Below the pieces are notes generated by a model, which saw nothing but the letters and a program-made list of their open reading frames with translations, was not told the DNA's origin and made no database searches. DNA of 64,000 nt from positions 88,201-152,200 of the forward strand of contig JBNJEV010000001.1 in the NCBI GenBank assembly GCA_051746185.1, in the 5' to 3' direction. The position numbers were made by a program, and so were the translations under genes. Every line of letters starts with the position of its first letter. Positions within the stretch are counted from its first letter, which is position 1. Origin of the DNA: Bacteroidota bacterium (GTDB lineage: Bacteria; Bacteroidota; Bacteroidia; Bacteroidales; GCA-2748055). Below, one piece after another: positions 20,573 to 47,515 of the stretch.

Positions 20573-20583
20573 ATGATCAGTAT

Positions 20584-20928: not shown

Positions 20929-20934
20929 TTTTAT

Positions 20935-26490: not shown

Positions 26491-26506
26491 TGTGAAAATG
26501 ATAACA
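26491..26506. promoter_or_regulatory. Candidate Rex operator (TGTGAA-N4-ATAACA) abutting the start codon at 26509
   Basis: TGTGAAAATGATAACA. One half-site equals the Rex consensus half TGTGAA; the other, TGTTAT, resembles the TTGTTAA variant. The same 16-bp pattern recurs twice at 44244-44303. Confidence 0.45.
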
Positions 26507-27516: not shown

Positions 27517-27527
27517 TCTTTAATGTG

Positions 27528-28376: not shown

Positions 28377-28394
28377 CAATAACCGGTGTATGCC

Positions 28395-28865
28395 ATGAGT
28401 AAAAAAATTCTGGTCGATATGATCAAATTACGCGATTATGAGGATTTGCCCGTGGATGCCGTTTTTCGCTCGGGTCCTGTGAAGAACGGTCTGAAAACCA
28501 TCCGTGAAGAAGCCTCCTTCGAGTTTACCTGCCGCCGTTGCGAGGATGCTCCCTGCATCTCGGTCTGCCCGGCCGAAGCGCTGGAAAAAGATGACACCGG
28601 AAGGGTGATCCGGAACCTCAATCTGTGTATACGCTGTAAATCATGTATCATGATCTGTCCCTTCGGCACCCTGATGGATGATCTGTTTGAACTGAAGCCC
28701 AGGGAAAGGATCTTTGACCTGGATGATGAAAAGGACCTGGAAGTATTTATCAGTGCATGTCCCGAAGATACCGTAACTCTCTATGATGGCGAGGAAGATC
28801 CTGAAAAGAACATTTTCAGGCTGAACGACAGGGTCTGGGTGAAGGAACGCGTCTGGAATCAATAA
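28395..28865 (+). CDS. 2x[4Fe-4S] ferredoxin-domain protein
   Basis: CRRCEDAPCISVCP and CIRCKSCIMICP motifs. Confidence 0.75.
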   Translation: MSKKILVDMIKLRDYEDLPVDAVFRSGPVKNGLKTIREEASFEFTCRRCEDAPCISVCPAEALEKDDTGRVIRNLNLCIRCKSCIMICPFGTLMDDLFELKPRERIFDLDDEKDLEVFISACPEDTVTLYDGEEDPEKNIFRLNDRVWVKERVWNQ

Positions 28866-28878
28866 AATAAACAGATAC

Positions 28879-29811: not shown

Positions 29812-29825
29812 AAAATTATAGAATC

Positions 29826-30239
29826 TTGGCTTTCAAAGATTTCATATTCAAAAAATCTCTCTGGCTTTTCCATTTCGGGGGTGCATCCTGCAACAACTGC
29901 GACATAGAGATCCTGGATTGCCTGACCCCCCGTTATGATGTGGAACGTTTCGGTATGGTGCTGGTGGGAAGCATCCGGCATGCGGATGTCCTGCTGGTAA
30001 ACGGCTCCATCAACCAGAAGGACAAACCGCGGCTGCTGGAACTTTACAACCAGGCACCCAAACCCATTCTGGTGGTGGCCATCGGGGCCTGTGGCTGTAC
30101 CGGTGGGATTTTTGCCCAGGGGAATACGTTCGCCGGACCGGTGGACAAGATCATCCCGGTGGATGCATACATTCCGGGATGTCCTCCCAAGCCTGAAGCC
30201 ATTCTGGCCGGAATTGTCAAGTTGTTGAACAAAAAATAA
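29826..30239 (+). CDS. [NiFe]-hydrogenase small subunit, NuoB/MbhJ-like (probable TTG start)
   Basis: FHFGGASCNNCDIE, VVAIGACGCTGG and YIPGCPPKPEA are the NuoB-type proximal-cluster motifs. The long ORF start (29655) overlaps the previous gene; a TTG at 29826 follows its stop. Confidence 0.88.
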   Translation: MAFKDFIFKKSLWLFHFGGASCNNCDIEILDCLTPRYDVERFGMVLVGSIRHADVLLVNGSINQKDKPRLLELYNQAPKPILVVAIGACGCTGGIFAQGNTFAGPVDKIIPVDAYIPGCPPKPEAILAGIVKLLNKK

Positions 30240-30245
30240 ACGCTC

Positions 30246-30689
30246 ATGACTGATAGCCTTACCATTTTAGAAAGTGCCCGGAAAAAATACAGTGCCGATA
30301 TTCTGGAAACAGAAACAAAAAGTGGTAAAAGGGCAACGGTCACCATCAAACCCTCATCGCTGGTCAACATGGCCGGTTATTTGTTCCGGGATTTGAATTT
30401 ACGGTTTATTATCGCAACGGCTCTGCATACAAAACAGGGGATGGAGATCTATTATCATTTCTCGCATGATCCTTCCGGGCTGATCCTCAACCTGCATGTG
30501 ATCCTGCCCGAGGAAAAGCCGGAAATTGAATCACTAACCTGCATGTTCGAGGCGGCCAACTGGATCGAGCGAGAAATGCATGAGATCCTGGGTATCAACT
30601 TCCTGAACCATCCCAACCTGGAGAAACTGATATCTGAAGGCAACTGGGCAGAAGGTGTATATCCGTACAGAAAAGAATTCAATCATTAA
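30246..30689 (+). CDS. NuoC/MbhK-like hydrogenase subunit
   Basis: 147 aa. FEAANWIEREMHEILGINFLNHPN is typical of the NuoC/30-kDa family. Confidence 0.85.
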   Translation: MTDSLTILESARKKYSADILETETKSGKRATVTIKPSSLVNMAGYLFRDLNLRFIIATALHTKQGMEIYYHFSHDPSGLILNLHVILPEEKPEIESLTCMFEAANWIEREMHEILGINFLNHPNLEKLISEGNWAEGVYPYRKEFNH

Positions 30690-30695
30690 GAGAAC

Positions 30696-31889
30696 ATGGC
30701 AAGTCAAACCATCATACCGGTCGGTCCCTATCATCCACTGCAGGAGGAACCCGAACTTTTCAAGCTGTTCTGCGACGGGGAGATCGTAAAGGACATCAAG
30801 TGGGAGACCGGATACAACCACCGCGGCATTGAGAAGTTGAGCGAATCGAAGACCTTTGACCAGGTGTTTTTCCTTGTGGAGCGCATCTGCGGGATCTGCT
30901 CCACCTCGCATCCTTTTGCATTCGCCAATGCCATGGAAGAGATCTGTGAACTGGAGATCCCCAACCGGGTCAAATATATCCGTTCCATCATCGGAGAACT
31001 GGAAAGGCTCCACAGCCATCTTCTGTGGGTCGGACTGGCCGGGCATTTCCTGGGATACAACACCGTCTTCATGTGGGCCTGGAAATACCGGGAACCGATC
31101 CTCGATTTGTTTGAAATGATCTCGGGAAACCGGAACAGTTATGCCATGTTCAAGATCGGGGGGGTGCGCCGGGACATCCCCATGGATATGATCCCCGAGG
31201 TCGGGCGGAAGATGGACGAATTCAGGCCCAAGCTCGACCTGTTGACGGGCGCCGTCACCGATGACCCGGTAATCCATGCCCGTACCAAGGGAGTGGGCGT
31301 GCTTACCCGGCAGGATTGCATCGACTTTGCAGCGGTAGGACCTACCAGCAGGGCTTCGGGTATTATGCACGATGTGCGTTATGATGATCCTTACGCAGCC
31401 TATGACATGGTCGACTGGAAAGTGATTACCTCCAACGACGGGGATGTCTATGCCAAGGCTGAAGTGCGCCTGCTTGAAATGTATGAATCCATCTCCATCA
31501 TCATGCAGTGCCTGGAAGGCTTGAAAAAAGAACCTGAGGGCGATACCGGCATTCAGGTTAAAAACGTGCCCGAAGGAATGGGGAACGGGCGCGCAGAAGC
31601 ACCCCGGGGAGAGGTGTTTCACTGCGTATTCACCGACGGGGGTATTACCCCGGTACGTCATAAAATACGGGCACCCAGCTATGTCAACATTGCCACATTT
31701 AAAAAATCATGTGTGGGGCAAACCATCTCCGATGCCACCATTTCACTGGCAGCCGTGGATCCCTGCTATTGTTGTACCGAACGCATGTCCATGGCCTATG
31801 ATTACCATAATGGAAAGAAGATCCTGTCGGGCGAAGATCTGATCCGTTTATCACAGCAAAGGACCGAAGAGATAAGAAAGAAATTATAA
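30696..31889 (+). CDS. Group-4 [NiFe]-hydrogenase large subunit (NuoD/MbhL-like)
   Basis: 397 aa. The N-terminal Ni-Fe motif RICGICSTSH and the C-terminal DPCYCCTER are both intact. Confidence 0.9.
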   Translation: MASQTIIPVGPYHPLQEEPELFKLFCDGEIVKDIKWETGYNHRGIEKLSESKTFDQVFFLVERICGICSTSHPFAFANAMEEICELEIPNRVKYIRSIIGELERLHSHLLWVGLAGHFLGYNTVFMWAWKYREPILDLFEMISGNRNSYAMFKIGGVRRDIPMDMIPEVGRKMDEFRPKLDLLTGAVTDDPVIHARTKGVGVLTRQDCIDFAAVGPTSRASGIMHDVRYDDPYAAYDMVDWKVITSNDGDVYAKAEVRLLEMYESISIIMQCLEGLKKEPEGDTGIQVKNVPEGMGNGRAEAPRGEVFHCVFTDGGITPVRHKIRAPSYVNIATFKKSCVGQTISDATISLAAVDPCYCCTERMSMAYDYHNGKKILSGEDLIRLSQQRTEEIRKKL

Positions 31890-31899
31890 AGCTTCTGTT

Positions 31900-33729
31900 A
31901 TGGACGAACTTTATTATATCATTTTCCTTCCCATTGTGGCAGGGATCCTTTTGTTCCTGATCCCTGAAAAAGTCAAGTGGATCAAAGGAACTTTCACATT
32001 GCTCGTCTCTGCCATATCCCTGCTGTTCGCCATCCGGCTGTATCAGCAACCAAACGGGATCTTCACCCTGAACCTGTTTTCTGTGAACCAGGAAGTCAAT
32101 GCCTTCTCCACATATCATATCGACAATCTCAGCAGGTTTATTACTCTGTCCATATGTGCCTTTGGTGTACTCATATCACTATACTCGCTTCTCTATGTGA
32201 CCCGGCAAATGAAGATCCGGAATTACTATGCCTATTTCCTGCTTACCGTAGGTTTATCAGCCGGAGCTGCGCTGACTGATAATCTGTTGTTGTTCCTGTT
32301 TTTCTGGGGAATCCTGGCAATCACCCTCTACAAGCTCATCAGGGGGTATGACCAGGAAAGTTCAGATGCAGCAAAAAAGAGCCTGGTCATGATCGGATCC
32401 TCCGACGGCATGATGATCCTGGGTATTGGTATCATCTGGAAAACATACGGAACCCTGTCCATTTCGGAACTGCATATACCAACCAATACCCCGATCCTGG
32501 TGCTCGCCTTCGTTTCCCTGTTGATCGGCAGTTTTACAAAAGCCGGCGCTTTCCCTTTTCATACCTGGATCCCTGATTACGTCAAAAAAGCTCCCGCATC
32601 ATCATCCGCCTACCTCCCGGCATCCCTTGACAAGCTACTGGGGATTTACTTTTTGGCCCGGATCTGCATAGACATGTTCACCCTGAACCAGTGGCTTACC
32701 TTTACCATGTTGCTTCTGGGTGTGATGACCATCATTTTTGCAGTAATGATGGCATTGATCCAGCATAACTATAAGCGTCTTCTGGGATATCATGCCGTAT
32801 CCCAGGTTGGATATATGGTGGTGGGACTCGGTTTGGGAACACCCATTGGCATTGCAGGAGGATTGTTTCACATGATCAACCACGCGATCTATAAATCCGG
32901 CTTATTTCTTGCCGCAGGAAATGTGGAAAAGGCTACGGAAAAAGAAGAACTGGATGATCTGGGTGGACTGGCAAAGGCCATGCCTGTCACATTTATAACC
33001 GCGCTGATATTTGCACTCTCCATCTCGGGTGTTCCTCCGTTTAATGGTTTTGCCTCAAAATGGATCATTTACCAGGGTATTATCGATTTTGGAAAAGAAC
33101 CGGGCATAGCCTCTCAATTATGGTACGTTTGGCTTGGACTGGCAGTACTGGGTTCAGCGCTGACCCTGGCATCCTTTCTCAAATTCATTGCAGGGATATT
33201 TTTGGGACGCAAGAAAAAAGAGCTTGAAAAAACCAGGGAAGTAAGTCCCCTGATGTGGATACCCAATCTGATCCTGGCATTGTTCTGTGTTGGTTTTGGG
33301 GTTTTTGCCGCCACATGGGTTGTTCCGAGAATCATCATGCCGCTTCATGTGGAATTTGAATATGTGGGTATCTGGCAGTCAACCACTGTCTCCGTACTTA
33401 TCCTGGTATCAATTGTGCTGGGTGTGATCTTTTACCTGATCGGGAACATAAAAAGGTTCCGGGTTGATGAGAGTTTTATCGGCGGGGAGACCAACCGGGA
33501 TGAAGTCAGCTATCCGGTAGTGGATTTTTACAAAACCATCAGCGAATCCGGATTCTTCTCGGCCATTTACCGACGTGCTGAAAGAAAATGGTTCGATATT
33601 TATGATCTCGGCCGGTGGTTTGTACTGTACCTCGGAAATTGGTTCAGCCGGGCACATACGGGCATACTGACCGCCTATGCCATCTGGCTGTTCGCCGGGC
33701 TGGTAATTTTAATGTTACTGCTGTTCTGA
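31900..33729 (+). CDS. Large antiporter-like subunit (NuoL/MrpA/MbhH-like)
   Basis: 609 aa, approx. 16 TM segments. Carries proton-conducting membrane transporter motifs (HAVSQVGYMV, LFHMINHAIYKSGLFL). Confidence 0.85.
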   Translation: MDELYYIIFLPIVAGILLFLIPEKVKWIKGTFTLLVSAISLLFAIRLYQQPNGIFTLNLFSVNQEVNAFSTYHIDNLSRFITLSICAFGVLISLYSLLYVTRQMKIRNYYAYFLLTVGLSAGAALTDNLLLFLFFWGILAITLYKLIRGYDQESSDAAKKSLVMIGSSDGMMILGIGIIWKTYGTLSISELHIPTNTPILVLAFVSLLIGSFTKAGAFPFHTWIPDYVKKAPASSSAYLPASLDKLLGIYFLARICIDMFTLNQWLTFTMLLLGVMTIIFAVMMALIQHNYKRLLGYHAVSQVGYMVVGLGLGTPIGIAGGLFHMINHAIYKSGLFLAAGNVEKATEKEELDDLGGLAKAMPVTFITALIFALSISGVPPFNGFASKWIIYQGIIDFGKEPGIASQLWYVWLGLAVLGSALTLASFLKFIAGIFLGRKKKELEKTREVSPLMWIPNLILALFCVGFGVFAATWVVPRIIMPLHVEFEYVGIWQSTTVSVLILVSIVLGVIFYLIGNIKRFRVDESFIGGETNRDEVSYPVVDFYKTISESGFFSAIYRRAERKWFDIYDLGRWFVLYLGNWFSRAHTGILTAYAIWLFAGLVILMLLLF

Positions 33730-33748
33730 ATAAAAAAATACCTGTACC

Positions 33749-34306
33749 ATGGAAGCGATCCTTACCGTTGTTCTGATTTTTATGATTCTGGGTGCGATAT
33801 ACTCCCTGCATGCAAAGGATCTGCTGTCGGCCCTGATCTCTATGGGGATTGTGGGATACGGACTGGTGATATGTTTTCTTTTGCTCAAGGCACCTGACCT
33901 GGCCATTGTCCAGATCCTGGTGGAGACCATTACCCTGGTGATCATGGTGTCGGTAGTGCTCGACAGCACGAGACATGAATTGAAAGAAAAAGCTGCCATC
34001 AAACATGAGGGGGAGCCTTTCATCAATTCCAGGTTTGTTGGAAACATTTTCATCGGTGTACTGATCTCCCTGGTACTGTTTTACACTTATCATTTCGCCA
34101 TTGAGAACCTGACCCCTTTCGGCGAGCATGTCATGCGTATGTCAGGGGCCTATCTGGAAGATCCGGCTAACCAAACCGGAAGCGCCAACATGGTCACCGG
34201 GGTGCTGTTCGATTACAGGGGCTATGATACGCTCGGGGAGGCGACCATACTGGTGACAGCGGTGGTGGGTGTACTGACGGTATTAAGATTGAAAGGGAGA
34301 AAATAA
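33749..34306 (+). CDS. Fused MbhD-like (DUF4040) and MbhE/MnhB-N-like membrane subunit
   Basis: The N-terminal half has [12 protein letters not shown]. The C-terminal half has [22 protein letters not shown], typical of the MrpA-C/MrpB region. Confidence 0.7.
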
Positions 34307-34319
34307 AAATAGTTATGTC

Positions 34320-34757
34320 ATGAAAGGAATGTCGATCATCGTAAAAAAAGTTGCTCAGTTTTTATCCGGACTGATCTTCATGTACGGGATCTATATTATC
34401 ACCCATGGTCATCTCACACCGGGGGGCGGCTTTGCCGGTGGAGCCATCCTGGCAGGCTCAATGATCCTCCTGGTACTGGCGTTTGGCAGTGATGTCATGG
34501 GATTGAAAAAAAGGGAAACGGGTTCATCCATCATTGAGAACTCGGCCATTCTGGCTTTCCTTGTTTTTGCCGTTGGTGCCATGCTCATCGGCACCCATGT
34601 TTTCTTCCATAATTTTCTGCCCCGGGGTAACCTGGGCGATCTTATCAGTGCAGGGGTCATTCCGCTTTATAACATTTTCGTGGGTATTGAAGTGGGTGCC
34701 GCCCTGTTTACCATATTCCTGGCATTGGTTATTTATAAAGAAGAGGTTTTAAAATGA
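34320..34757 (+). CDS. MnhB/MrpB (MbhF-like) subunit
   Basis: HGHLTPGGGFAGGAILAG motif, 145 aa, 4 TM segments. Confidence 0.75.
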   Translation: MKGMSIIVKKVAQFLSGLIFMYGIYIITHGHLTPGGGFAGGAILAGSMILLVLAFGSDVMGLKKRETGSSIIENSAILAFLVFAVGAMLIGTHVFFHNFLPRGNLGDLISAGVIPLYNIFVGIEVGAALFTIFLALVIYKEEVLK

Positions 34758-35092
34758 TACTGTATCTGCTTTGTTTTCTGTTGTTTCTGATCGGCCTTTA
34801 CGGAGTAGTGACCCGGAGGAATGTAATTAAGATCGTGATCGGACTGGTTTTCATGGAATTCAGTGTTTTCCTGATGCTGGTATTGATCGGCTATGTGGAA
34901 AAGGGCCATGCTCCCATTGTCGATGAAGCGGTGGCCACCGGTCCCTTTGTTGATCCGTTGCCGCAGGCCATGGTACTTACGGCGATCGTGATCGGACTGG
35001 CAGCCAACGCCATGTTGCTGGCAATCGCCATCAGGCTGTATAAGAAATATGGAACGTTTGATATCCGGAAAATCAATCAACTTAAAGGATAA
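34754..35092 (+). CDS. MrpC/NuoK (MbhG-like) subunit
   Basis: 112 aa, 3 TM segments. GLYGVVTRRNVIKIVIGL.ME is the NuoK-family pattern. Confidence 0.8.
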   Translation: MILYLLCFLLFLIGLYGVVTRRNVIKIVIGLVFMEFSVFLMLVLIGYVEKGHAPIVDEAVATGPFVDPLPQAMVLTAIVIGLAANAMLLAIAIRLYKKYGTFDIRKINQLKG

Positions 35093-35096
35093 TCAC

Positions 35097-36635
35097 ATGA
35101 GTCAGCTCATTCCACTTTTTGTCATTTTACCCCTGGCTGCCGCTTTCCTGATCCCAATTATCGGGAAATTCCTGGAAGGATTCCAGAAGGCTGTTTCTTC
35201 GCTGGTCTTTCTTTTTCTGAGTGTGCTGGCCTTATATTTCATTTGTTCCGGACTCACCACGCCCATTACATACGCAGTAGGGGGTTGGAAACCTGTGGAA
35301 GGGATCCCCATAGCCATTTACCTGGTGGCCGATGGGCTGAGTGTTGTTATGCTCATCATTATCAATGTGATGGGATTCCTTTCCGGCTTTTATGCCATTT
35401 CCTATTTAAAGAGATTTACGGCACAGAACAATTTTTATGCACTCTTTTGCCTGATGATAGCGGGGATGAACGGTGTGGTGCTGACCGGAGATCTGTTTAA
35501 CCTTTATGTTTTCATGGAAATAGCCGTGATCGCTTCTTACGCACTTGTGGCTTTCGGAATTGAAAAAAATGAGCTTGAGGCTTCCTTTAAATACCAGGTT
35601 CTGGGCGGCATTGCTTCCGTGCTAATTCTTTTCGGAGTGGCTTTGCTTTACTGGAAAACCAAAACACTAAATATTGCCGATGCCGGTCATATGCTGAAGA
35701 AGACTCCAGACCGATCGTTCATCATCTTTACCCAGTTATTCCTGATCGCCGGTTTTGGACTCAAGGCAGCCCTGATCCCGTTCCACGCATGGCTGCCTGA
35801 TGCACATTCGTCAGCCCCATCGCCCATTTCAGCTATGCTTTCCGGAGTTCTGATCAAAGCAGTAGGGATCTATTGCATTATCAGGCTATTTTTCAATATG
35901 TTCGAGATCTCTTACGAATTGCCGGTAACGATCGCTGCACTCGGGGCACTGTCCATGGTCATTGGTGTTTTTCTTGCGATCATCCAGTGGGATCTTAAAA
36001 GGTTATTTGCCTACCACAGCATCAGTCAGATGGGGTATGTCATGACAGGTATTGGAATGGGGATGATCATCATGTCCAGGGGAGGCGATCCCAAAGTTGC
36101 TGCGCTGGCACTGGCCGGGGGTTTATTTCATCTGATCAACCATGCGGTATTCAAAGGATTGCTGTTTCTCAACGCCGGCGCTCTTGAATTTAAATGTCAT
36201 ACACGCAACCTGCTTAAAATGGGAGGCATGTGGAAACAAATGCCGGTTACCTACTCGACTTCCCTGAGTGCATCCATGGCCATATCGGGGATACCTCCTT
36301 TTAACGGTTTCTTCAGCAAACTGATGATCATTATTGCAGCGATCCAGGGGAATTTTTACCTGCTGGCAATCCTGGCCATACTGGTCAGCATATTGACCCT
36401 CGGCTCATTTCTGAAGTTTCAGAAATATGCATTCTTTAACAAACCCGGGAACCCCGATAGACAAAATATCAGCGAGGTTCCTTTTACCATGTGTTTTTCT
36501 ATGATTGTCCTGGCACTGTTATGCCTGGGACTGAGCCTGCTCATCTTCCCGGGGATCAGGGAGATCATACTGGACCCGGCGGTCAATGTCATCATGAATT
36601 CAACAGAATACGCATTATCCATAACAAGCATATAA
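35097..36635 (+). CDS. Second large antiporter-like subunit (MrpD/NuoN/NuoM-like)
   Basis: About 512 aa from MSQLIPLF. Contains AALIPFHAWLPDAH and LFHLINHAVFKGLLFL. Confidence 0.85.
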   Translation: MSQLIPLFVILPLAAAFLIPIIGKFLEGFQKAVSSLVFLFLSVLALYFICSGLTTPITYAVGGWKPVEGIPIAIYLVADGLSVVMLIIINVMGFLSGFYAISYLKRFTAQNNFYALFCLMIAGMNGVVLTGDLFNLYVFMEIAVIASYALVAFGIEKNELEASFKYQVLGGIASVLILFGVALLYWKTKTLNIADAGHMLKKTPDRSFIIFTQLFLIAGFGLKAALIPFHAWLPDAHSSAPSPISAMLSGVLIKAVGIYCIIRLFFNMFEISYELPVTIAALGALSMVIGVFLAIIQWDLKRLFAYHSISQMGYVMTGIGMGMIIMSRGGDPKVAALALAGGLFHLINHAVFKGLLFLNAGALEFKCHTRNLLKMGGMWKQMPVTYSTSLSASMAISGIPPFNGFFSKLMIIIAAIQGNFYLLAILAILVSILTLGSFLKFQKYAFFNKPGNPDRQNISEVPFTMCFSMIVLALLCLGLSLLIFPGIREIILDPAVNVIMNSTEYALSITSI

Positions 36636-36636
36636 T

Positions 36637-37122
36637 ATGAGATACGTAGGACTTTCTATCATCCTGTTCGGGTTCTGGTTGCTGCTCACCTTTGATCTCT
36701 CCGCAAACAATCTGATCGTGGGAGGGATTGCAGCATTGCTGGTCTCTTCCTACTTCGGCCGTTTTTTCATTCGGAGATACCGGAAGATGGCCGATCCGCG
36801 CCGGTATTTCTGGTTCATCGTCTATATTGTGGTCTTTGTGTGGGAATGCCTGAAGGCCAATTTTGACGTAGCTTACCGGGTGCTGCATCCCGCCATGCCC
36901 ATTAAACCGGGCATCGTGAAGGTCCGACTGGCGCTGAAAACGAATATTGCACGCACCATTTTGGCCAGCTCCATTACCATGACACCCGGCACCATTACCG
37001 TGGATATTATCGATGATTTTATTTACATACACTGGATCTATGTAAGCAGCACCGAGGCTGCAGTGTACGGTGAAAAAGTATCCGGCAGATTTGAAAAATA
37101 CCTAAAACGCATATTCGAATGA
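36637..37122 (+). CDS. MrpE/MnhE-like subunit
   Basis: 161 aa. Two N-terminal TM segments followed by NFDVAYRVLHPAMPIKPGIV...TLASSITMTPGT, typical of MnhE. Confidence 0.75.
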   Translation: MRYVGLSIILFGFWLLLTFDLSANNLIVGGIAALLVSSYFGRFFIRRYRKMADPRRYFWFIVYIVVFVWECLKANFDVAYRVLHPAMPIKPGIVKVRLALKTNIARTILASSITMTPGTITVDIIDDFIYIHWIYVSSTEAAVYGEKVSGRFEKYLKRIFE

Positions 37123-37385
37123 ACACCTTTCTGCATATTATCCTTTATGCGCAGATCCTCCTGTGTTTTTTTTGCCTGTACCGTGTGGTAAGAGGTCCGA
37201 CCATCCCAGACCGGATGGTGGGCATTGATATTTTCGGGATCCTGGTTGTGGGGATCTGCGCCATTCTGACCATTATGACCGGCAGGACTTTTATCATTGA
37301 TATCGGGATTGCCTGGATCATCCTGAGCTTTATCGGAACACTGACACTGGCAAAATACTTAAGTAAACAGAAGTTAAATGAGTAG
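37119..37385 (+). CDS. MrpF/MnhF-like subunit
   Basis: 88 aa, 3 TM segments. RVVRGPTIPDRMVGID is the MnhF pattern. Confidence 0.75.
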   Translation: MNTFLHIILYAQILLCFFCLYRVVRGPTIPDRMVGIDIFGILVVGICAILTIMTGRTFIIDIGIAWIILSFIGTLTLAKYLSKQKLNE

Positions 37386-37746
37386 TACAGACATTATCAG
37401 CCTTGTTTTACTGGTCATCGGGATCCTGTTCAACCTGTTCGGGTGCATCGGCCTGATCCGACTGCCCGATGTTTATAACCGGCTGCAATCGGCCACCAAA
37501 TGTGTTACCCTGGGTACCTGCAGCATCCTCCTGAGCCTGATCTTTTATTTCGGCTTTAATGTAACCGGCGTGAAAGGCCTGGTCGCTATCCCCCTGCTGT
37601 TCTTCGGGGCCACTGTGGCCGCTCACGCGCTGGCCCGGGGATCCTATCTATTCGGGATAAAACTGGGAGGAGGAAGCATCAAGGACGATTTCAGGGAAAA
37701 GGCTGAAGCGGAAGCAAAAAAGCAGAAAGATCATGAAATATCCTAA
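37378..37746 (+). CDS. MrpG/MnhG-like subunit
   Basis: 122 aa. GCIGLIRLPDVYNRLQSATK is the MnhG signature. Confidence 0.78.
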   Translation: MSSTDIISLVLLVIGILFNLFGCIGLIRLPDVYNRLQSATKCVTLGTCSILLSLIFYFGFNVTGVKGLVAIPLLFFGATVAAHALARGSYLFGIKLGGGSIKDDFREKAEAEAKKQKDHEIS

Positions 37747-38344
37747 ACTGAGAGAACTGAAAGAGGCCATACATTCCCTGGTTTCACCGGCGTACACCAC
37801 CGGGTTCCCGGCAGAATCCCACCGGCCTGCAAAAAATTACCGGGGAAAGCCTGTGGTGGACGATGCCAACTGCGTGGGCTGCGAGACATGTACCAATGTA
37901 TGCCCCAGCGGGGTGATCACCTTTGAGGACGACCGGGAAAACAGGAAGCGGATCATTGTACGGGACTATGGCCTCTGCATTTTCTGCGGGCAATGTGAAG
38001 AGCACTGCATTACCGGAAAAGGCATCAGGCTTTCCGATGAGATCTATGACATGGCCAATTTTGACCGGAAAGAGCTGGTCGAAACACAGGAAAAAGAGCT
38101 GCTGGTCTGTGAGAGCTGCGGTGCGGTGATCACTACCCGCGAGCACATGGAATTCATGCATAAAAAGCTTGGTCCCAGAGCATATTCTTCCATTCTCGAT
38201 CTCAACATGCTGAATGAAAAACTCCGGCTGGCCTCCCGGGAAGATACCGGCACAGAGGTTAAAGACGGGTTGAAGCGAAAAGACATGTTCAACATCATCT
38301 GTCCCAATTGCCTGAGAAAAATTCTCATCACCCTCAGCTATTGA
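37733..38344 (+). CDS. 2x[4Fe-4S] subunit, NuoI/MbhN-like
   Basis: CVGCETCTNVCP and CIFCGQCEEHC motifs, plus a C-terminal extension with further Cys pairs (CESCG, CPNC). Confidence 0.8.
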   Translation: MKYPKLRELKEAIHSLVSPAYTTGFPAESHRPAKNYRGKPVVDDANCVGCETCTNVCPSGVITFEDDRENRKRIIVRDYGLCIFCGQCEEHCITGKGIRLSDEIYDMANFDRKELVETQEKELLVCESCGAVITTREHMEFMHKKLGPRAYSSILDLNMLNEKLRLASREDTGTEVKDGLKRKDMFNIICPNCLRKILITLSY

Positions 38345-38802
38345 TGCATGGACTAAAAAATCTGCCCGATCCCGCTGCAAACCGCCTGCTTTTCGTTGGA
38401 ATCGGAAATCTCCTGAAAAAGGATGACGGGGTGGGGGTTTATATTTCCGAAAGGATCAGGGAAACAAAAAATATCATTAAACTTACGGTAGAAGTAAGCA
38501 TTGAGAACTATATCGGAAAGATCAACCGGATCAATCCCGATCATTTGATCCTGATCGACTGCATGAATTTTAACAAGCAGCCCGGTTACTTCAGACTTCT
38601 CCCCGTTGAGCAGGTACGGTCCCATGCCGTAAGCACCCACCATATTTCCCTGAAACAGGTGTCCGAATTGTTCAGGATGCCGGTCTGGGTGCTGGGAATC
38701 CAACCCCGGGACACCTCATTCGGAGAGAACCTGAGCCCGGAGGTCAAACGTTCGGCCGACCTGATCATTCACGAACTGGGAAGGGCGCTCCCTGAGACCT
38801 GA
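38344..38802 (+). CDS. Hydrogenase maturation endopeptidase (HycI/HyaD family)
   Basis: LLFVGIGNLLKKDDGVGV, LILIDC and STHHISL are protease metal-ligand motifs. The ATG overlaps the preceding TGA. Confidence 0.85.
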   Translation: MHGLKNLPDPAANRLLFVGIGNLLKKDDGVGVYISERIRETKNIIKLTVEVSIENYIGKINRINPDHLILIDCMNFNKQPGYFRLLPVEQVRSHAVSTHHISLKQVSELFRMPVWVLGIQPRDTSFGENLSPEVKRSADLIIHELGRALPET

Positions 38803-40723: not shown

Positions 40724-42523
40724 CTAATACCGTTCCCTCCCGGTATAATGGGTGTGCAACAGTTCGTGGGATTTATGGCCAAGCGGCTCACCCAGGAAAT
40801 CTTTGTAAATGGCAATGATCTCAGGATTTTCATGAGATTTCCGGTACTCCAGCGACATATCCTCTTCATAGATGGCCTCGGCCCGTTTCCGGCGAATCTC
40901 GTCATTGGTGGGAATGGGCTGACCGCCCCCGCCCAGGCATCCGCCCGGACAGGCCATGATCTCGATGAAATGTACATCCATCTCACCGTTCTTCACACTG
41001 TTCATCAGTGTTCTGGCATTCACCAGGCCATGGGCCACCGCACATTTCAGTTCCACGCCTTCCAGGAAATTCCACTCTTCCTTGCAGTCTTCGATCTTCA
41101 CCGAGGCAAGTCTCACTCCCTCCATCCCCCGGACCGGCATAATGTTCAGATCTTCGAAGGGGACTTCCCTGCCGGTAACAATTTCGTAGGCCGTCCTCAG
41201 GGCTGCTTCCATTACGCCTCCGGTGGCTCCGAAAATGACCGCCGCACCCGAGGAAACCCCCATGATGCTGTCGTAGGTATCATCCTTTAATTTGTTGAAA
41301 TCCACACCGGCCTGCCTGATCATTCTGGCCAGCTCCCTGGTGGTCAGCACGATATCAACATCCTTGTAGCCGCTTGAACGCATCTCCGGACGGTTGGCCT
41401 CATACTTTTTGGCAGTACAGGGCATGATGGAAACGCTTACCACATTCTTCGGATCCAGATCCCGTACCTTGGAGTAATAGGTTTTGGCCAGCGCCCCGAA
41501 CATCTGCTGGGGTGATTTGCAGGTGGAGACATTGTCCAGATATTCGGGGAAAGTATGTTCTATGAATTTAACCCAGCCCGGCGAACAGGAAGTGGTCATG
41601 GGCAGCTTAACCGAAGGATCTTTTTCCACAAGGGTTTTTTTCAGCCGGGTGAGCAATTCGGTCCCTTCTTCCATAATGGTTAAATCGGCTGTGAAATCCG
41701 TATCCAGTACGGAATCAAATCCGAGCCGTTTCAGGGCCGCCACCATCTTGCCGGTGACCCGGTCCCCTGCATCCAGCCCCAGCTCTTCTCCCAGTCCGAC
41801 CCTCACTGCAGGAGCGGTCTGAACCACCACGTGTTTTTCAGGATCCAGAACGGCATCCCATACCTCATCTATGTAAGTCCGTTCCACCAGTGCACCGGTG
41901 GGACATCGGTTCACACACTGTCCGCAGTTGGTGCAGATCACCTCTGCCATGGACAAATTCTCGAAGGTGCTGATCTTCTGTTCATCTCCTTTAAAGGCAA
42001 CGGTAAGCGCATTTACACCCTGCAATTGTTCACAGGTCCGCACACACCTCTGGCAACGGATGCATTTGCTGTCATCCTTCTGGATGGAAGGAGAAAACAT
42101 GTCGATCGTGTAGTCTTTGGGATCTACCAGATCCAGCAGGATATGATCTCCCACACAGAATTCATTCGACAGGTCCTGCAATTCACACTTTCCGTTCTTG
42201 TAACACTTGGTACAATCGGCCCTGTGTTCGGAAAGAAGCAGCTCGATCACATGTTTCCTGGCCGCCCTTACTTTCAGTGAATTGGTCAGGATCTGCATCC
42301 CTTCACTGACAGGGGCGGCGCAGGCTGCAACAAGTGACTTTCCTCCCAGCTGCTCAACCACACAGACCCTGCAATTTCCTGCCACACACAGGTCATCATG
42401 GTGACACAGCGTTGGAATTCGGAAATTCAAATTTTTCGCGGCCTCCAGGATGGTTGTTCCTTCCGGGACCTTGGTCAGAAGACCATTGATCGACAGATTT
42501 ACCATATGATTATTTTCCTTCAT
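40724..42523 (-). CDS. hydA: [FeFe]-hydrogenase catalytic subunit (HydA/HndD-like)
   Basis: N-terminal 2Fe-2S ferredoxin fold, a His-ligated cluster region (HRADCTKC), and two CxxCxxCxxxCP motifs. H-cluster motifs are TSCSPGW, MPCTAKKYEA and EIMACPGGCLGGGGQP. Confidence 0.9.
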   Translation of the reverse strand: MKENNHMVNLSINGLLTKVPEGTTILEAAKNLNFRIPTLCHHDDLCVAGNCRVCVVEQLGGKSLVAACAAPVSEGMQILTNSLKVRAARKHVIELLLSEHRADCTKCYKNGKCELQDLSNEFCVGDHILLDLVDPKDYTIDMFSPSIQKDDSKCIRCQRCVRTCEQLQGVNALTVAFKGDEQKISTFENLSMAEVICTNCGQCVNRCPTGALVERTYIDEVWDAVLDPEKHVVVQTAPAVRVGLGEELGLDAGDRVTGKMVAALKRLGFDSVLDTDFTADLTIMEEGTELLTRLKKTLVEKDPSVKLPMTTSCSPGWVKFIEHTFPEYLDNVSTCKSPQQMFGALAKTYYSKVRDLDPKNVVSVSIMPCTAKKYEANRPEMRSSGYKDVDIVLTTRELARMIRQAGVDFNKLKDDTYDSIMGVSSGAAVIFGATGGVMEAALRTAYEIVTGREVPFEDLNIMPVRGMEGVRLASVKIEDCKEEWNFLEGVELKCAVAHGLVNARTLMNSVKNGEMDVHFIEIMACPGGCLGGGGQPIPTNDEIRRKRAEAIYEEDMSLEYRKSHENPEIIAIYKDFLGEPLGHKSHELLHTHYTGRERY

Positions 42524-42538
42524 TTATGCAACCTTTCA

Positions 42539-43699
42539 TTAATAGATGATCTCTTCTTTGAAATTTTCCACAATGGAGCCAAAAGCATTTCCCACCGACT
42601 GACCGAGTCCGCATTTGGCTGCGATTTTCATAGTCCCGGCCAGTTTCACCAGTTCATCCAGATACTTTGAATTCTTTTCTCCACGCTTGACCGCTTCAAC
42701 CCCTTTCAGAAGCTGCTGACAACCCACCCGGCAGGGTGTGCACTGTCCGCAGGATTCCTCGGTAAAGAAATCAAGATAGTTATGCAGTACATTATACATC
42801 GAACGGGTGCTGTTGAATAATTTCATAGACCCTCCGGTGGGAACACCTTCAAATCCTATGATGGTTTCTTCAAATTTCTTCCTGGGAACGCAGAAACCGG
42901 CGGCACCCCCCACCTGGACAGACTTGGTATCACCGTCACCAAACTCCTCCACGAATTCATGCACCGACATTCCCAGTTCCAGTTCATAGATCCCGGCCTT
43001 GGGGGTATCCCCTGAAATGGAGAAAACCTTGGATCCCCTGGAATCCTTGGTACCCAGCTCCTTGAAACGTTCGGCCCCGTATTTCATGATCATGACCGCA
43101 TGCACAAGGGTTTCCACATTGTTGATAGCCGTGGGTTTGTTGAACAATCCTTCGGCTGTGGGATAGGGAGGCTTGTTTCTGGGTTCTCCCCTTTTACCCT
43201 CAATGGACTCGAACAGGGCACTCTCTTCACCGCAGATGTATGCGCCACTTCCCAGACGGATCTGGATCCTGAAATTCAGGTTGAATTCATCTGCCAGGCG
43301 ATGGAATTCATCCAGTGCCGTTCTCAGTTTAGGGATCAAAAATTTGTACTCTGCCCGTAAATAGACATAACCGGTTTTGGCACCCACCGCCCTGGCTGCG
43401 ATGGCCATCCCGCAGAATACCTTCCCCGGGACTTCATCCAGGATCTGACGGTCCTTGAACGTACCCGGTTCTCCTTCATCCGCATTGCAGACGATATATT
43501 TGACAGAATCCTTTTCCATGGCCGCGAACCTCCACTTCATTCCCGTAGGGAAACCTGCCCCGCCTCGTCCTTTCAGGTCAGAATCGAGTACTTCCTGGCA
43601 GATCGCATCGGGCTCCATGGCCATAATCTTTTCCATGATCTCCCGGCAAGCGACCTTTTCGAAAATGAGTTCAACCCGTTTGATATATTGTTCCTTCAT
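42539..43699 (-). CDS. NuoF-like flavoprotein subunit (HydB/HndC core only)
   Basis: GRGGAGFPTGMKW, NADEGEPGTFKDR and the ESCGQCTPCR...C (N3 cluster) motifs. At 386 aa it ends just after the fourth N3 Cys. Confidence 0.88.
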   Translation of the reverse strand: MKEQYIKRVELIFEKVACREIMEKIMAMEPDAICQEVLDSDLKGRGGAGFPTGMKWRFAAMEKDSVKYIVCNADEGEPGTFKDRQILDEVPGKVFCGMAIAARAVGAKTGYVYLRAEYKFLIPKLRTALDEFHRLADEFNLNFRIQIRLGSGAYICGEESALFESIEGKRGEPRNKPPYPTAEGLFNKPTAINNVETLVHAVMIMKYGAERFKELGTKDSRGSKVFSISGDTPKAGIYELELGMSVHEFVEEFGDGDTKSVQVGGAAGFCVPRKKFEETIIGFEGVPTGGSMKLFNSTRSMYNVLHNYLDFFTEESCGQCTPCRVGCQQLLKGVEAVKRGEKNSKYLDELVKLAGTMKIAAKCGLGQSVGNAFGSIVENFKEEIIY

Positions 43700-43719
43700 C
43701 AGTTCCTTTTTTGATGCTT

Positions 43720-44190
43720 TTACTTCTTGATGTATTCACGTAGTATTTCGGTTACCTTTTCCGATGTTAATTCAGTGTAAGGTGTATCATTGATAAGCAT
43801 TGCCGGTGCTTTGTGGCACCATCCGATGCAATTGGTCTCAAGAAGACTGAATTTCTTATCCGGCGAAGTTTCTCCGACCTGTATTTTCAACGTATCTTCA
43901 ATGGTGGTAAGCACGTCATTCTTACCCTTCATGGCACAGGAAATGGTCTTACAGATCCGGATCACATATTTTCCCCTCACCTCGGTATCAAGGAAGGAAT
44001 AGAATGTCGCGGTGCCAAATACATCTGCAGCCGATATGTCCAGTTCTCTCGCCACATCCACCATGTCCTGCTTGCTCAGATAGCGGTTGTGAACGACAAG
44101 GTCCTGCAATATGGGCAGCAGGCTTTCCCTGGTCCTGCCATGTTTGTTGGCAAGCTCTCTGACTAGTTCGTTTTCAATCATGGTCTCCAT
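43720..44190 (-). CDS. NuoE-like [2Fe-2S] thioredoxin-fold subunit (HydC/HndA)
   Basis: 156 aa. The spacing ICKTISCAMKG ... CIGWCHKAP fits the NuoE 2Fe-2S motif. Confidence 0.88.
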   Translation of the reverse strand: METMIENELVRELANKHGRTRESLLPILQDLVVHNRYLSKQDMVDVARELDISAADVFGTATFYSFLDTEVRGKYVIRICKTISCAMKGKNDVLTTIEDTLKIQVGETSPDKKFSLLETNCIGWCHKAPAMLINDTPYTELTSEKVTEILREYIKK

Positions 44191-44243
44191 GAATACTCAA
44201 ATTTTTTATATGTGATTGAAATAATGCTAGTTATATTTCTTTC

Positions 44244-44303
44244 TGTTATTTCTTTCACAAAATGAAGCGGTAAAAATAGCTTTTTGATGTGAACCATATA
44301 ACA
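44244..44303. promoter_or_regulatory. Two candidate Rex operators upstream of the [FeFe]-hydrogenase operon
   Basis: TGTTATTTCTTTCACA (44244-44259) and TGTGAACCATATAACA (44288-44303). Both fit TGTGAA-N4-ATAACA, the same pattern as 26491-26506. Confidence 0.45.
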
Positions 44304-44419
44304 ACAAAACTCATAATTTTTCAAGTTGCCCAAAATACAGATTCGTTCTAAATAAGACGCCGTGCTGAACCTCCTGAAAACAAGCGTTCCGGAGCTTTTT
44401 GGATATAAATAGCAAAATT

Positions 44420-44455
44420 AACTAACAATTTAGTTGCATAACTAAGTTTTTAGTT
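44420..44455. promoter_or_regulatory. Twin palindromic operators upstream of blaI-family repressor
   Basis: AACTAACAATTTAGTT (44420-44435) and AACTAAGTTTTTAGTT (44440-44455). Arms are AACTAA/TTAGTT, the sites are 20 bp apart centre to centre, and they end 19 nt before the ATG at 44475. Confidence 0.55.
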
Positions 44456-44474
44456 ATATATTTGTGGTAAGATC

Positions 44475-44870
44475 ATGAAAAAAGAATCCACCACACCACT
44501 GACCAAAGCAGAAGAACAGGTGATGCAAATCCTCTGGAAGGAGAAAAAAGGATTTGTCCGGGACCTGCTGCAGCATTTCCCCGATCCAAAACCTGCTTAT
44601 AATACGGTATCCACCATTATTCGTATCCTGGAAAAGAAAGGTTTCGTGAACCATCGAACATTCGGAAAATCACATCAGTATTACCCTGTTGTCAGCCTGG
44701 ACCAGTATCGCAATGAGCGTTTCACCAGCCTGATGAAAAATTACTTCAATAACTCCATGAAACAGGTGCTGTCCCATTTCGGGGAAAGTGGATCCATGGA
44801 TATCAGGGAAGTGGATGAGATCATCCGGATCATGGAAGAGTTAAAACATAAAGCCGAAAGTAATGAATAA
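44475..44870 (+). CDS. BlaI/MecI/CopY family transcriptional repressor
   Basis: 131 aa. The winged-helix N-terminus LTKAEEQVMQILW ... YNTVSTIIRILEKKGFV is characteristic. Confidence 0.85.
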   Translation: MKKESTTPLTKAEEQVMQILWKEKKGFVRDLLQHFPDPKPAYNTVSTIIRILEKKGFVNHRTFGKSHQYYPVVSLDQYRNERFTSLMKNYFNNSMKQVLSHFGESGSMDIREVDEIIRIMEELKHKAESNE

Positions 44871-46089
44871 CTTTTTCCAATACCTGCTCGAGCTGAACAT
44901 CGCAATGGTAGTCCTTTACCTGGGTTATCGCCTTTTCTTCGAAAAAGATAAAAATTTTACGGTGCGCAGGATCTACCTGATCGCCACCATGGTACTGCCC
45001 GTGCTGCTGCTCTTTCTTCCCGAATCGGCCAGCAATATGGCGGGCAGGATGGCACCGGTGAGCTTCCGTCTTGAGCAGATCACGGTGCTGGGAAAGGCTT
45101 CCGGACAGGAATCAGTTGTTAACGTTTCACCGTTGAAACTGGTCCTGTTCGTCTACCTGTTTATAGCCACGCTCGGACTGATCAAATTCCTGGTTGATCT
45201 GACCAAGATCCTGCTGACCGTAAAAAACTCCTCCCGGCTGGAGATAAACGGACTAACCCTGTATATTCATCCTGAACTGCATGCCAGTTCCTTTTTCGGA
45301 TATATTTTTATTGATCCCGCCAGGGTGCATGAGGATTCTTTCCATCACATCCTCGAACATGAACAGGTCCACAGACACGAGTGGCATTCCGTCGACCGGA
45401 TCCTGGCAGAACTCATCGTCCTTGTCAACTGGTTCAACCCGGTGGTGTGGATGATCCGGAGATCGGTGATCCAGAATCTCGAGTACCTGACCGATTCCAT
45501 TGTAGTCAACAAGGGGACCAATAAACACAAATACCAGTTATCCATATTGAATCAATATATAGGAAGCGTTTCTATAACCAATCAATTCAACAGTCAAATC
45601 AAAAACCGAATCAAGATGCTAAACAGAAGTGATAGAATGGGAAGCGCATGGAAACTTGCCATGATCTTTCCGATGGTATTCGTTACACTGTTCTTCTTTT
45701 CATGTACCGACAGAGAAAATATGATCCCTGCCGGGGATGAAAACCAGGAACAGTCCGAACCTGAAAGCGATATATTTTATATTGTGGAAGAAATGCCTTT
45801 GTTCCAGAATGAAGATCCCGCCCAGAGCTTCAGGAAATATATTGTGCAAAACCTGGAGTATCCGGAGAATGCAGCCGAAAACGGGATCAGCGGCCGCGTA
45901 ATCGTTCAGTTTACCGTAAACAGGACCGGCCAGGTGGTGGATGCGGTTGTGGTCAATAGCGTGGATCCCGCCCTGGAGAAGGAAGCCATCAGGGTCGTGA
46001 TGTCATCCCCCAAATGGACTCCGGGAAGGCAGAGGGGTCAGGCGGTCAATGTTTTATATACATTCCCCGTCAATTTTGCATTGCAGTAG
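44863..46089 (+). CDS. BlaR1/M56 peptidase-family sensor with C-terminal TonB-like domain
   Basis: 408 aa. TM N-terminus, HEXXH motif (EHEQVHRHEWH), and a C-terminal TonB-C fold (GISGRVIVQFTVNRTGQV...PGRQRGQAVNVLYTFPVNF). Overlaps the blaI stop (ATGAATAA). Confidence 0.8.
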   Translation: MNNFFQYLLELNIAMVVLYLGYRLFFEKDKNFTVRRIYLIATMVLPVLLLFLPESASNMAGRMAPVSFRLEQITVLGKASGQESVVNVSPLKLVLFVYLFIATLGLIKFLVDLTKILLTVKNSSRLEINGLTLYIHPELHASSFFGYIFIDPARVHEDSFHHILEHEQVHRHEWHSVDRILAELIVLVNWFNPVVWMIRRSVIQNLEYLTDSIVVNKGTNKHKYQLSILNQYIGSVSITNQFNSQIKNRIKMLNRSDRMGSAWKLAMIFPMVFVTLFFFSCTDRENMIPAGDENQEQSEPESDIFYIVEEMPLFQNEDPAQSFRKYIVQNLEYPENAAENGISGRVIVQFTVNRTGQVVDAVVVNSVDPALEKEAIRVVMSSPKWTPGRQRGQAVNVLYTFPVNFALQ

Positions 46090-46102: not shown

Positions 46103-46206
46103 GTGCTTTCTCATTTCGGAAAACCGGCTCACTTGATATCAAAGAGACCGATGAGATCATCCGCATGATGGAAGAACTGAAAGAAAAGGCAGGACACAAT
46201 GAATAA
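46103..46206 (+). pseudogene. 3'-terminal relic (approx. 34 codons) of a second blaI paralog
   Basis: Translates to AFSFRKTGSLDIKETDEIIRMMEELKEKAGHNE-stop. This parallels the C-terminus of the intact BlaI (SHFGESGSMDIREVDEIIRIMEELKHKAESNE) and has the same ATGAATAA overlap with the next gene. Confidence 0.7.
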
Positions 46207-47515
46207 CCTTTTTACATATCTGCTGGAGCTGAACATGGCCATGGTGATCTTTTTTGCCGGGTACAAGCTTTTCTTTGAAAGAGACAGGAATTTCCTGGTG
46301 CGCAGAATCTATCTGCTTGCCACCATCATCATCCCGGTGTTGATGATCCTATTGCCCGACATCCCACGAAGCATTACCGGCAGAATGATCCCGATGGTTA
46401 TCCACCTGGATCAGATCACGGTGACGGCACACGGTCAGGCACACGGTGCCGGTGGTTTGCTTTCACCCTGGTCCTGGCTGATGATCCTTTATCTGTCGGT
46501 GGCCGCACTGTGCATGACCCGGATGATAATCCATCTGATCAGAATCAGACGGGCGGTAAAACACTCAGCGCGACTGGAGCTTGACGGGATAACGCTGTAT
46601 GCAAACCCCGGCCTGCATGCCAGTTCATTTTTCGGGTATATTTTCGTGGATCCTGCCCGGATCGGACAGGAATCCTTCAGCCATATACTGGGACATGAAC
46701 AGATCCACAGGCGTGAATGGCACTCGGTGGACCGGATCCTGACAGAATTGTTCGTGATCGTTAACTGGTTCAATCCCGTAGCCTGGTTGCTCCGGAGCTC
46801 GGTGATCGAGAACCTGGAGTACCATACCGACTCGGTGATGGTGAAACAGGGGACCGACCCACGGCATTATCAGTTGTCCATATTAAACCAATATATAGGA
46901 AGCGCTTCCATTACCAATCAATTCAACAGTCAAATCAAAAACCGAATCAACATGTTAAACAGAAATGATAGAATGGGAAGCTCATGGAAACTTGCCATGA
47001 TCTTCCCGATCGTACTGATCACATTCATTCTTGCTTCCTGTACAGAAAAGGATGTGAATTCTGAACTTGAAAACGAAACTGTGAAAAAATCCACCATTAC
47101 CGAGAGTAAAATCTACCAGCAGGTGGATGAAATGCCCACATTTCAGGGTGGCGAACTTATCGAATTCAGGAAATTCATAGCAAAGAATATCATCTATCCC
47201 CGTGAAGCCAAGGAAAACAATGTGACCGGAAAGATCTTTGTGGTCTTTGTGGTCCGGGATGATGGAAAAGTAGTCATCCCCGATCCAGAAGAACTTCCAC
47301 CACCTCCGGAAAAAAATAATATTGATGAAGTGGTGGTGGCAGCTTACAGGCCCCTGGATAAGGAAGCCCCCATGCCGGATGAAAAATACATAGAACTTCT
47401 GAAAAATGAAGCGGTAAGGGTGGTCACCTCCTCTCCCAACTGGGAACCAGGAAAAATAAAGGGTAAACCGGTGAATGTGATGTTCACTTTCCCCATCAAT
47501 TTTGTCCTCCAATAA
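46199..47515 (+). CDS. Second BlaR1/M56-TonB family sensor (paralog of 44863-46089)
   Basis: 438 aa with the same architecture: GHEQIHRREWH and the C-terminal NVTGKIFVVF...PGKIKGKPVNVMFTFPINF. Confidence 0.8.
   Translation: MNNLFTYLLELNMAMVIFFAGYKLFFERDRNFLVRRIYLLATIIIPVLMILLPDIPRSITGRMIPMVIHLDQITVTAHGQAHGAGGLLSPWSWLMILYLSVAALCMTRMIIHLIRIRRAVKHSARLELDGITLYANPGLHASSFFGYIFVDPARIGQESFSHILGHEQIHRREWHSVDRILTELFVIVNWFNPVAWLLRSSVIENLEYHTDSVMVKQGTDPRHYQLSILNQYIGSASITNQFNSQIKNRINMLNRNDRMGSSWKLAMIFPIVLITFILASCTEKDVNSELENETVKKSTITESKIYQQVDEMPTFQGGELIEFRKFIAKNIIYPREAKENNVTGKIFVVFVVRDDGKVVIPDPEELPPPPEKNNIDEVVVAAYRPLDKEAPMPDEKYIELLKNEAVRVVTSSPNWEPGKIKGKPVNVMFTFPINFVLQ

Follow-up and report, generated by a model that had tools for sequence, protein, structure and literature searches.

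The question that this locus raises is whether two different hydrogenases of one bacterium answer to a single redox sensor. The 64-kb stretch of the Bacteroidota contig JBNJEV010000001.1 analysed here (all of it, hereafter the window) encodes an operon for a group-4 membrane-bound [NiFe] hydrogenase and, 18 kb away, the hydCBA operon for a trimeric NADH-dependent [FeFe] hydrogenase, as well as rex, the gene for a redox-sensing transcriptional repressor. The original prediction held that three copies of one 16-bp pattern (TGTGAANNNNATAACA, TGTGAA-N4-ATAACA, with 12 specified bases) in front of these operons, two of them in opposite orientations upstream of the [FeFe] genes, point to co-control of both enzymes by one regulator, with Rex as the foremost candidate. 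This idea gained support from the Rex protein profile, the fit of the boxes to the Rex consensus, their linkage to rex, their conservation in relatives and matrices exchanged between the two operons, and from this sequence evidence we consider it highly likely that Rex binds the three boxes and represses, and that NADH relieves the repression (coordinates in Table 1).

The three copies were found exactly where, and exactly as, they had been described, and they are the only exact matches to the pattern in the window, compared with an expectation of 0.00 from 100 dinucleotide-preserving shuffles; all three are located at hydrogenase promoters. The box of the [NiFe] operon ends 2 nt ahead of the ATG of the first gene, and those of the [FeFe] operon lie 53 nt (proximal) and 97 nt (distal) 5' of the hydC ATG, 44 bp apart from centre to centre. 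Their placement upstream of the [FeFe] operon stands, with the clarification that this operon runs on the minus strand and that the boxes sit in an intergenic region which hydC shares with the divergent blaI (start 44475). Relaxing the pattern to allow up to two mismatches brought in three more matches in the window, each with two mismatches, and the resulting total of 6 is at the level of chance (5.2 expected). Trained solely on rex-[NiFe] intergenic boxes from relatives (L001-L080, see below), a matrix ranked the same three boxes at the top of the window, at 19.9 bits for the [NiFe] box, 16.5 for the proximal and 15.3 for the distal [FeFe] box, and none of 300 shuffles yielded three matches of at least 15.3 bits. 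The fourth-ranked match (13141-13156, 9.5 bits) was dismissed as chance, the mean shuffle maximum being 11.8. The claim that the three copies are no coincidence is thereby borne out, and the possibility raised along with it, that the motif might be common in intergenic DNA, was not: in the DNA scanned, i.e., the window and 1.9 Mb from relatives, the motif is rare and specific.

The candidate regulator is encoded next to the [NiFe] operon. Its open reading frame (ORF) passes the NCBIfam Rex equivalog NF003996 (207 bits vs. a cutoff of 138) and contains the Pfam domains Put_DNA-bind_N and CoA_binding. Solved Rex structures (5zz5, 3wg9 and 3ikt) match it with E-values from 5e-34 to 7e-30 (best 5zz5, 5.5e-34), and in alignment with them the QVRKD recognition helix, the GxGxxG dinucleotide loop, the acidic fD.DP residue and NFAP are all kept. 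Judged by these features the product is a bona fide Rex, with its DNA-binding and dinucleotide-binding motifs intact. The generalised Rex operator consensus, TTGTGAANNNNTTCACAA, spans several phyla (Ravcheev et al. 2012, as cited in PMC5317091), and the boxes of the window agree with it at 10 of the 12 specified positions and in the N4 spacing, the left half being exactly TGTGAA and the right half ATAACA. They share with this canonical operator its length, N4 spacer, TGTGAA half-site and the T on the 5' flank (PMC5317091), whereas one half-site per box is here GTTAT (ATAACA) instead of GTGAA, a hybrid that is strictly kept in ~55 loci; the orthologous [NiFe] boxes of relatives carry the canonical TCACA.

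The association of rex with the boxes recurs in related genomes. We queried genome contigs with an antiporter subunit encoded midway along the [NiFe] operon and obtained 80 loci (labelled L001-L080; 60-76% identity), nearly all of them from uncultured Bacteroidales metagenome-assembled genomes (MAGs), and the operon is conserved in ~60 Bacteroidales MAGs. In 50 loci, rex and the first [NiFe] gene point away from each other, as they do in the window, and the intergenic regions between them (~210 bp) hold two positionally fixed boxes. A matrix derived solely from sites upstream of [FeFe] operons in other samples, applied to these regions at a threshold of 12 bits, found at least one box in all 50 and two in 44, normally one per start codon. 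At the [NiFe] start codon, 52 related loci have a box in the position of the window's, most commonly TGTGAATCTTCTCACA-TAA-ATG, and the orthologous boxes match the Rex consensus at 11-12 of 12 positions. In the closest relative (L001) the box TGTGAAAATTTTAACA stands at the [NiFe] start codon, a position orthologous to that of the window's own box, which ties the ATAACA variant to the canonical TCACA boxes. Four loci lacked an adjacent rex although at least 900 nt of sequence preceded the operon; of these, L068 and L078 were without a box, and L077 and L079 had a moderate one. Loci in which the [NiFe] operon has no adjacent rex include those from Kiritimatiellae and Verrucomicrobiota (L077, L078), and a related locus came from Cloacimonadota (L080).

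The region upstream of hydC is equally informative. With HydC as query, a scan of metagenome contigs gave 80 loci at 70-94% identity, 75 of which had at least 125 nt upstream; two boxes were found in 68 of the 75, one in the remaining seven and none in no locus at all. In the 68 two-box loci the spacing between the boxes is 44 bp (58 loci), 45 bp (8) or 43 bp (2), and in ~55 orthologous loci the proximal box keeps its position (-50 to -57) and the same half-sites while its spacer varies. An alignment of 50 non-identical hydC upstream regions, in which mean pairwise identity outside the boxes is 0.61, gave a conservation of 0.988 for the 24 half-site columns, 0.752 for the eight spacer columns and 0.714 for the other 168 intergenic columns. 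The boxes are thus almost certainly selected regulatory operators. The same alignment contains two further conserved blocks 5' of the distal box, with many columns at or above 0.9 across the 50 loci; they are not Rex-like, have no Rfam match and could represent the site of a second regulator or an upstream promoter element.

The operators of the two operons also recognise one another when each set is used to search for the other. The rex-[NiFe] matrix, run over 468 kb of [FeFe] loci, produced 143 matches at hydC -30 to -110 and 3 elsewhere, and the literal pattern was present in these loci at the hydC promoter only. The reciprocal [FeFe]-site matrix placed 105 matches between rex and the [NiFe] operon and 27 at other places in 1.43 Mb, one of the latter being a box ahead of hypA in L017; another, in L031, lies within a coding region and was set aside as likely chance. 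The matches elsewhere also include near-perfect Rex boxes of ~25 bits in the [NiFe] loci L045 and L079, which precede a second NuoE/NuoF-like operon that is distantly related. In L018 and L025, internal matches were observed ahead of an MbhD-like gene. In L075 (at 19045), L008 (at 18700) and L009 (at 18884), a CzcA-like RND efflux pump encoded ~18 kb beyond the start of the [NiFe] operon has a palindrome, TGTTAATTnnTTAACA, 4 nt before its ATG; the palindrome scores 18-23 bits with the Rex matrix, and we left it out of the Rex count since it is possibly the site of another regulator.

The genes behind the boxes are of a kind that Rex would be expected to control. Annotation was based on Pfam and NCBIfam scans, the former covering 70 window ORFs (most of the gene-like ones). 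First in the [NiFe] operon comes an NAD(P)H module of the sulfhydrogenase beta/gamma type (ShyB/ShyC-like, AsrA/AsrB-like), followed by NuoH/B/C/D-like and Mrp-type antiporter subunits and, at the end, the HycI protease; the large subunit of the hydrogenase retains both nickel-binding cysteine pairs (CGIC and CYCC). The combination of NAD(P)H module and Mrp-type antiporter subunits suggests an ion-translocating NAD(P)H:H+ oxidoreductase. HydA passes NF040763 ("NADH-dependent [FeFe] hydrogenase, group A6") with 867 bits vs. a cutoff of 765. Both hydrogenases carry NAD(P)H modules, in keeping with NAD(P)H re-oxidation, fermentation or energy metabolism as the business of Rex targets. The rex gene is itself followed on the same strand by hyp genes, in the order rex-hypF-hypD-hypE-hypA-hypB (19709-26260, minus strand), with the start of hypF overlapping the stop codon of rex, so that rex heads the [NiFe] maturation operon and the redox sensor would be co-transcribed with the maturation machinery.

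How the operators might act depends on where the promoters are. A scan of 44100-44500 for sigma-70 promoters and terminators gave no match, and the empty sigma-70 scan was as expected, because Bacteroidetes use -33/-7 promoters; the -7 consensus of Bacteroides is TANNTTTGY (PMC12632263). A putative -7 box of the [FeFe] operon lies between the two Rex boxes, and its columns are 0.84-1.0 conserved in the 50 loci, bar one variable column that corresponds to a consensus N position. This conserved TAnTTTTA, which agrees with the Bacteroides consensus, sits 9 nt past the distal box and ~11 nt ahead of the proximal box, and more distant loci have an exact TAnnTTTG there. For the [NiFe] operon, a tentative -7-like box precedes the Rex box in the window, and in relatives a gap of 2 nt separates a conserved TATTTTTA from the [NiFe] box that follows it. 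The TAnnTTT[G/A] boxes are putative promoter elements at both operons, and from their location between the hydC boxes and just 5' of the [NiFe] box we infer repression by promoter occlusion.

Repression by occlusion, relieved by NADH, is the established mechanism of Rex. Applied to the window, a Rex dimer would occupy the three boxes at low NADH/NAD+. The [NiFe] operator would lie just downstream of the probable -7 box, abutting the start codon, and the hydCBA operators would flank their -7 box, the distal one over the -33 region (~-36 to -21) and the proximal one over the first ~20 transcribed bases, such that bound Rex would block RNA polymerase. Accumulated NADH, which we infer to be the releasing signal from established Rex biochemistry, would bind the Rossmann domain of Rex and cause it to leave the DNA, allowing expression of both NAD(P)H-linked hydrogenases. 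By virtue of their NAD(P)H modules, the two derepressed enzymes would vent surplus reducing equivalents as H2 when NADH is high.

Several points weigh against this model. The core of the boxes, TGTGA-N6-T(C/A)ACA, also fits sites of the CRP/FNR type, so the motif alone does not single out Rex, and the right half-site ATAACA departs from the canonical TTCACA at two of six positions. The window retains only a decayed remnant of the rex-proximal box (5.8 bits, 9 of 12 positions) where relatives have TTTTGTGATTTGTTTCACA abutting the rex start codon (48 loci); the rex-proximal box is likewise decayed in L001, and Rex autoregulation may have been lost or weakened in the lineage of the window. The moderate boxes of L077 and L079 stand without an adjacent rex, which could lie elsewhere in those genomes. 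Finally, the sign of regulation may be questioned, since activation by Rex has been suggested for the membrane-bound hydrogenase of Caldicellulosiruptor bescii, where a Rex box lies upstream of the transcription start and expression of this hydrogenase is lower in a rex mutant (PMC8579813).

The last point leads to the alternative that Rex is an activator or a dual regulator at one or both operons, in which case the two hydrogenases could be oppositely regulated. Besides the precedent in C. bescii, there are the distances of the hydC boxes from the ATG and a weaker TAnnTTTG-like box found close to the ATG in some loci; were this the promoter, both Rex boxes would lie upstream of it. This second -7-like box is, however, far less conserved (~0.5-0.7) than the one between the boxes, and the [NiFe] box, directly 3' of a conserved -7-like box and abutting the start codon, suits occlusion and not activation. 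We therefore regard activation as unlikely. A little less probable still is binding by a CRP/FNR-family or other winged-helix regulator encoded elsewhere, with the adjacency of rex being coincidental or rex being merely a target of that regulator. In addition to the fit of the core, the flanks of the boxes are only partly Rex-like, the 3' flank often being T and not A. Against this, no CRP/FNR-type family was matched among the Pfam-scanned ORFs of the window, in which Rex and BlaI were the only DNA-binding regulators found; boxes and rex occur together in every one of the 50 rex-linked loci, with one box normally abutting the rex start codon; positions 6 and 11 of the relatives' boxes are kept as A or T, as in Rex boxes; and NAD(P)H-linked enzymes are classic content of Rex regulons (PMC8579813). 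That the boxes are operators of BlaI, whose gene shares the intergenic region with the hydC boxes, or are non-regulatory (chance matches or repeat remnants), is hardly credible, as BlaI is effectively ruled out as their binder by the boxes kept in L133, L134 and L147 without a detectable blaI within 6 kb, by the same box at the [NiFe] operon 18 kb away and by separate candidate operators of blaI itself (tandem AACTAA/TTAGTT dyads), and chance is excluded by the shuffles, the matrix scans and the phylogenetic footprint.

With Rex as the preferred binder, the hybrid half-sites call for comment. At the distal hydC position TGTTAT and TGTGAT swap between loci (e.g., L094, L095, L103 and L104), which suggests that the two half-site types are functionally equivalent. 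A change in the recognition helix was considered as the cause of TCACA vs. TAACA and none was found, since QVRKDFS is identical in all 47 Bacteroidales Rex proteins compared; the operator variants GTGAA and GTTAT would thus be tolerated by one invariant helix. Just ahead of QVRKDFS, at Rex residues ~33-36, the window has LGKE and the main clade LANE, and the varying residue is a candidate correlate: G ("LG") occurs in clades with GTTAT/TAACA [NiFe] half-sites and A ("LA") in the GTGA/TCACA clade. The two hydC boxes are mirror images of each other, each with a strong inner GTGAA and a weaker outer GTTAT half-site, set at 44±1 bp (about four helical turns) round the -7 box, and this arrangement is invariant in ~55 lineages while the spacers drift. 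It is conceivable, although in our view rather doubtful, that the hydC promoter is a fixed "clamp", across which two Rex dimers would bind cooperatively, or as a tetramer or a loop.

Rex control of hydrogenases is known from other phyla. Experiments in Caldicellulosiruptor (Firmicutes; C. bescii and C. saccharolyticus) have shown that Rex governs the membrane-bound [NiFe] hydrogenase as well as the cytosolic NADH-dependent bifurcating [FeFe] hydrogenase through 18-20-bp palindromes in the target promoters (PMC8579813). The likeness lies in one NADH-sensing Rex for both hydrogenase types, predicted here from sequence. The present locus differs in its phylum, in that its [NiFe] enzyme has an NAD(P)H module whereas the membrane-bound hydrogenase of Caldicellulosiruptor is described as ferredoxin-dependent and NADH-independent, in that the position of the boxes suggests repression of both operons instead of the activation proposed there for the membrane-bound enzyme, and in having rex at the head of the hyp maturation operon, which runs away from the [NiFe] operon. 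Half-sites of the GTTA type have a precedent in the boxes of Clostridia and Thermoanaerobacterales (TTGTTAANNNNTTAACAA): predicted Rex sites of T. saccharolyticum include TTGTTAAATGAATAACAA and TAGTTAAATTTATAACAA, in which ATAACA halves occur, and the predicted targets include the hydrogenase genes ech-hyp, hfs and hydG (PMC5886521). Those boxes are GTTA/GTTA, whereas each box here combines one GTGAA with one GTTAT half-site. In Caldithrix abyssi, rex is physically linked to an [FeFe] hydrogenase cluster with an upstream Rex box, cTGTGAATCAATTCACAt, read as NADH-responsive control of H2 production (PMC5317091). There, rex is co-oriented with the [FeFe] genes in one cluster, whereas here it stands back to back with the [NiFe] operon, and the [FeFe] genes, preceded by two operators, lie 18 kb away. 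Full-text searches of the literature accessible to us turned up no account of Rex regulation in Bacteroidota. Given Caldicellulosiruptor, the circuit predicted here is not new in kind, and it is the phylum that seems new; what is unusual is the mirror-image pair of hybrid boxes, the operators abutting start codons, rex at the head of a hyp operon and a group-4 hydrogenase with an NAD(P)H module.

Table 1 Features of the window, with the two additional boxes found in relatives.
Feature	Position	Strand	Sequence or remarks
Rex box of [NiFe] operon (predicted operator)	26491-26506	+	TGTGAAAATGATAACA; exact pattern match
Promoter-proximal Rex box of [FeFe] operon (predicted operator)	44244-44259	-	TGTGAAAGAAATAACA on operon strand
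Distal Rex box of [FeFe] operon	44288-44303		TGTGAACCATATAACA on + strand, TGTTATATGGTTCACA on operon (-) strand
Decayed remnant of rex-proximal Rex box	26265-26280		TGTACTTTTTTTCCCA; begins 4 nt 5' of rex ATG
Putative -7 box of [FeFe] operon	44271-44278	-	TATTTTTA on operon strand
Tentative -7-like box of [NiFe] operon	26476-26483	+	TTATTTTG; 7 nt 5' of Rex box; 5/6 TAnnTTTG positions
rex	25622-26260	-	212 aa; redox-sensing transcriptional repressor; first gene of rex-hyp operon
hypF, hypD, hypE, hypA, hypB	19709-25625	-	[NiFe] maturation; Pfam HypF, HypD, AIRS, HypA, CobW/HypB
Group-4 membrane-bound [NiFe] hydrogenase operon	26509-38802	+	~15 genes; divergent from rex
hydCBA operon	40724-44190	-	Trimeric NADH-dependent [FeFe] hydrogenase; Pfam and NCBIfam
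hydC	43720-44190	-	NuoE-like
hydB	42539-43699	-	NuoF-like
hydA	40724-42523	-	NCBIfam NF040763
Conserved blocks 5' of distal Rex box	44306-44365		Consensus TCTTATTTAGATCGAATATGTATTT and TTGAnAAAATATGA
Probable BlaI operators	44419-44458		Two tandem 20-nt copies, TAACTAACAATTTAGTTGCA and TAACTAAGTTTTTAGTTATA
Tandem BlaR1-like paralogues	44863-46089, 46199-47515	+	M56 peptidase fused to TonB C-terminal domain
737-aa ORF	16960-19173	+	Class-V aminotransferase (cysteine desulfurase-like) domain fused to AIRS/SelD-like domain
tRNA gene	11866-11940	+	Sole Rfam match in the window
Rex box upstream of second NuoE/NuoF-like operon, L045	21462-21481		TTTGTGAATTGATTCACAAC; ~25 bits
Rex box upstream of second NuoE/NuoF-like operon, L079	14459-14478		GTTGTGAAATAATTAACAAT; ~25 bits

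Among the neighbouring genes, blaI has an arrangement of its own. Each of the two tandem copies listed in Table 1 is an AACTAA/TTAGTT inverted repeat, and directly 3' of the pair come a TAnnTTTG box that fits exactly (TATATTTG) and then the blaI ATG; the two copies are probably BlaI operators over the promoter of blaI-blaR. The BlaR1-like paralogues follow 3' of blaI, and their fusion with TonB is an architecture typical of Bacteroidetes.

The circuit proposed here reveals no new mechanism; it would be a familiar control circuit in another phylum, and it extends the predicted Rex regulon to Bacteroidota. One product of the work is a Bacteroidales Rex matrix from ~130 unique sites, usable for regulon annotation in MAGs. 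Should the doubtful clamp prove true, the weakened outer half-sites would set a sharp NADH threshold, a form of Rex action not known to have been described. The clamp, the rex-hyp operon and the group-4 [NiFe] hydrogenase with its NAD(P)H module would then constitute a Bacteroidales-specific, Rex-governed "NADH-to-H2" module, found in many MAGs from anoxic sediments and digesters. More broadly, the results offer a testable model of H2 production in uncultured environmental Bacteroidales, in which a single sensor of NADH/NAD+ would turn on both NAD(P)H-linked enzymes.

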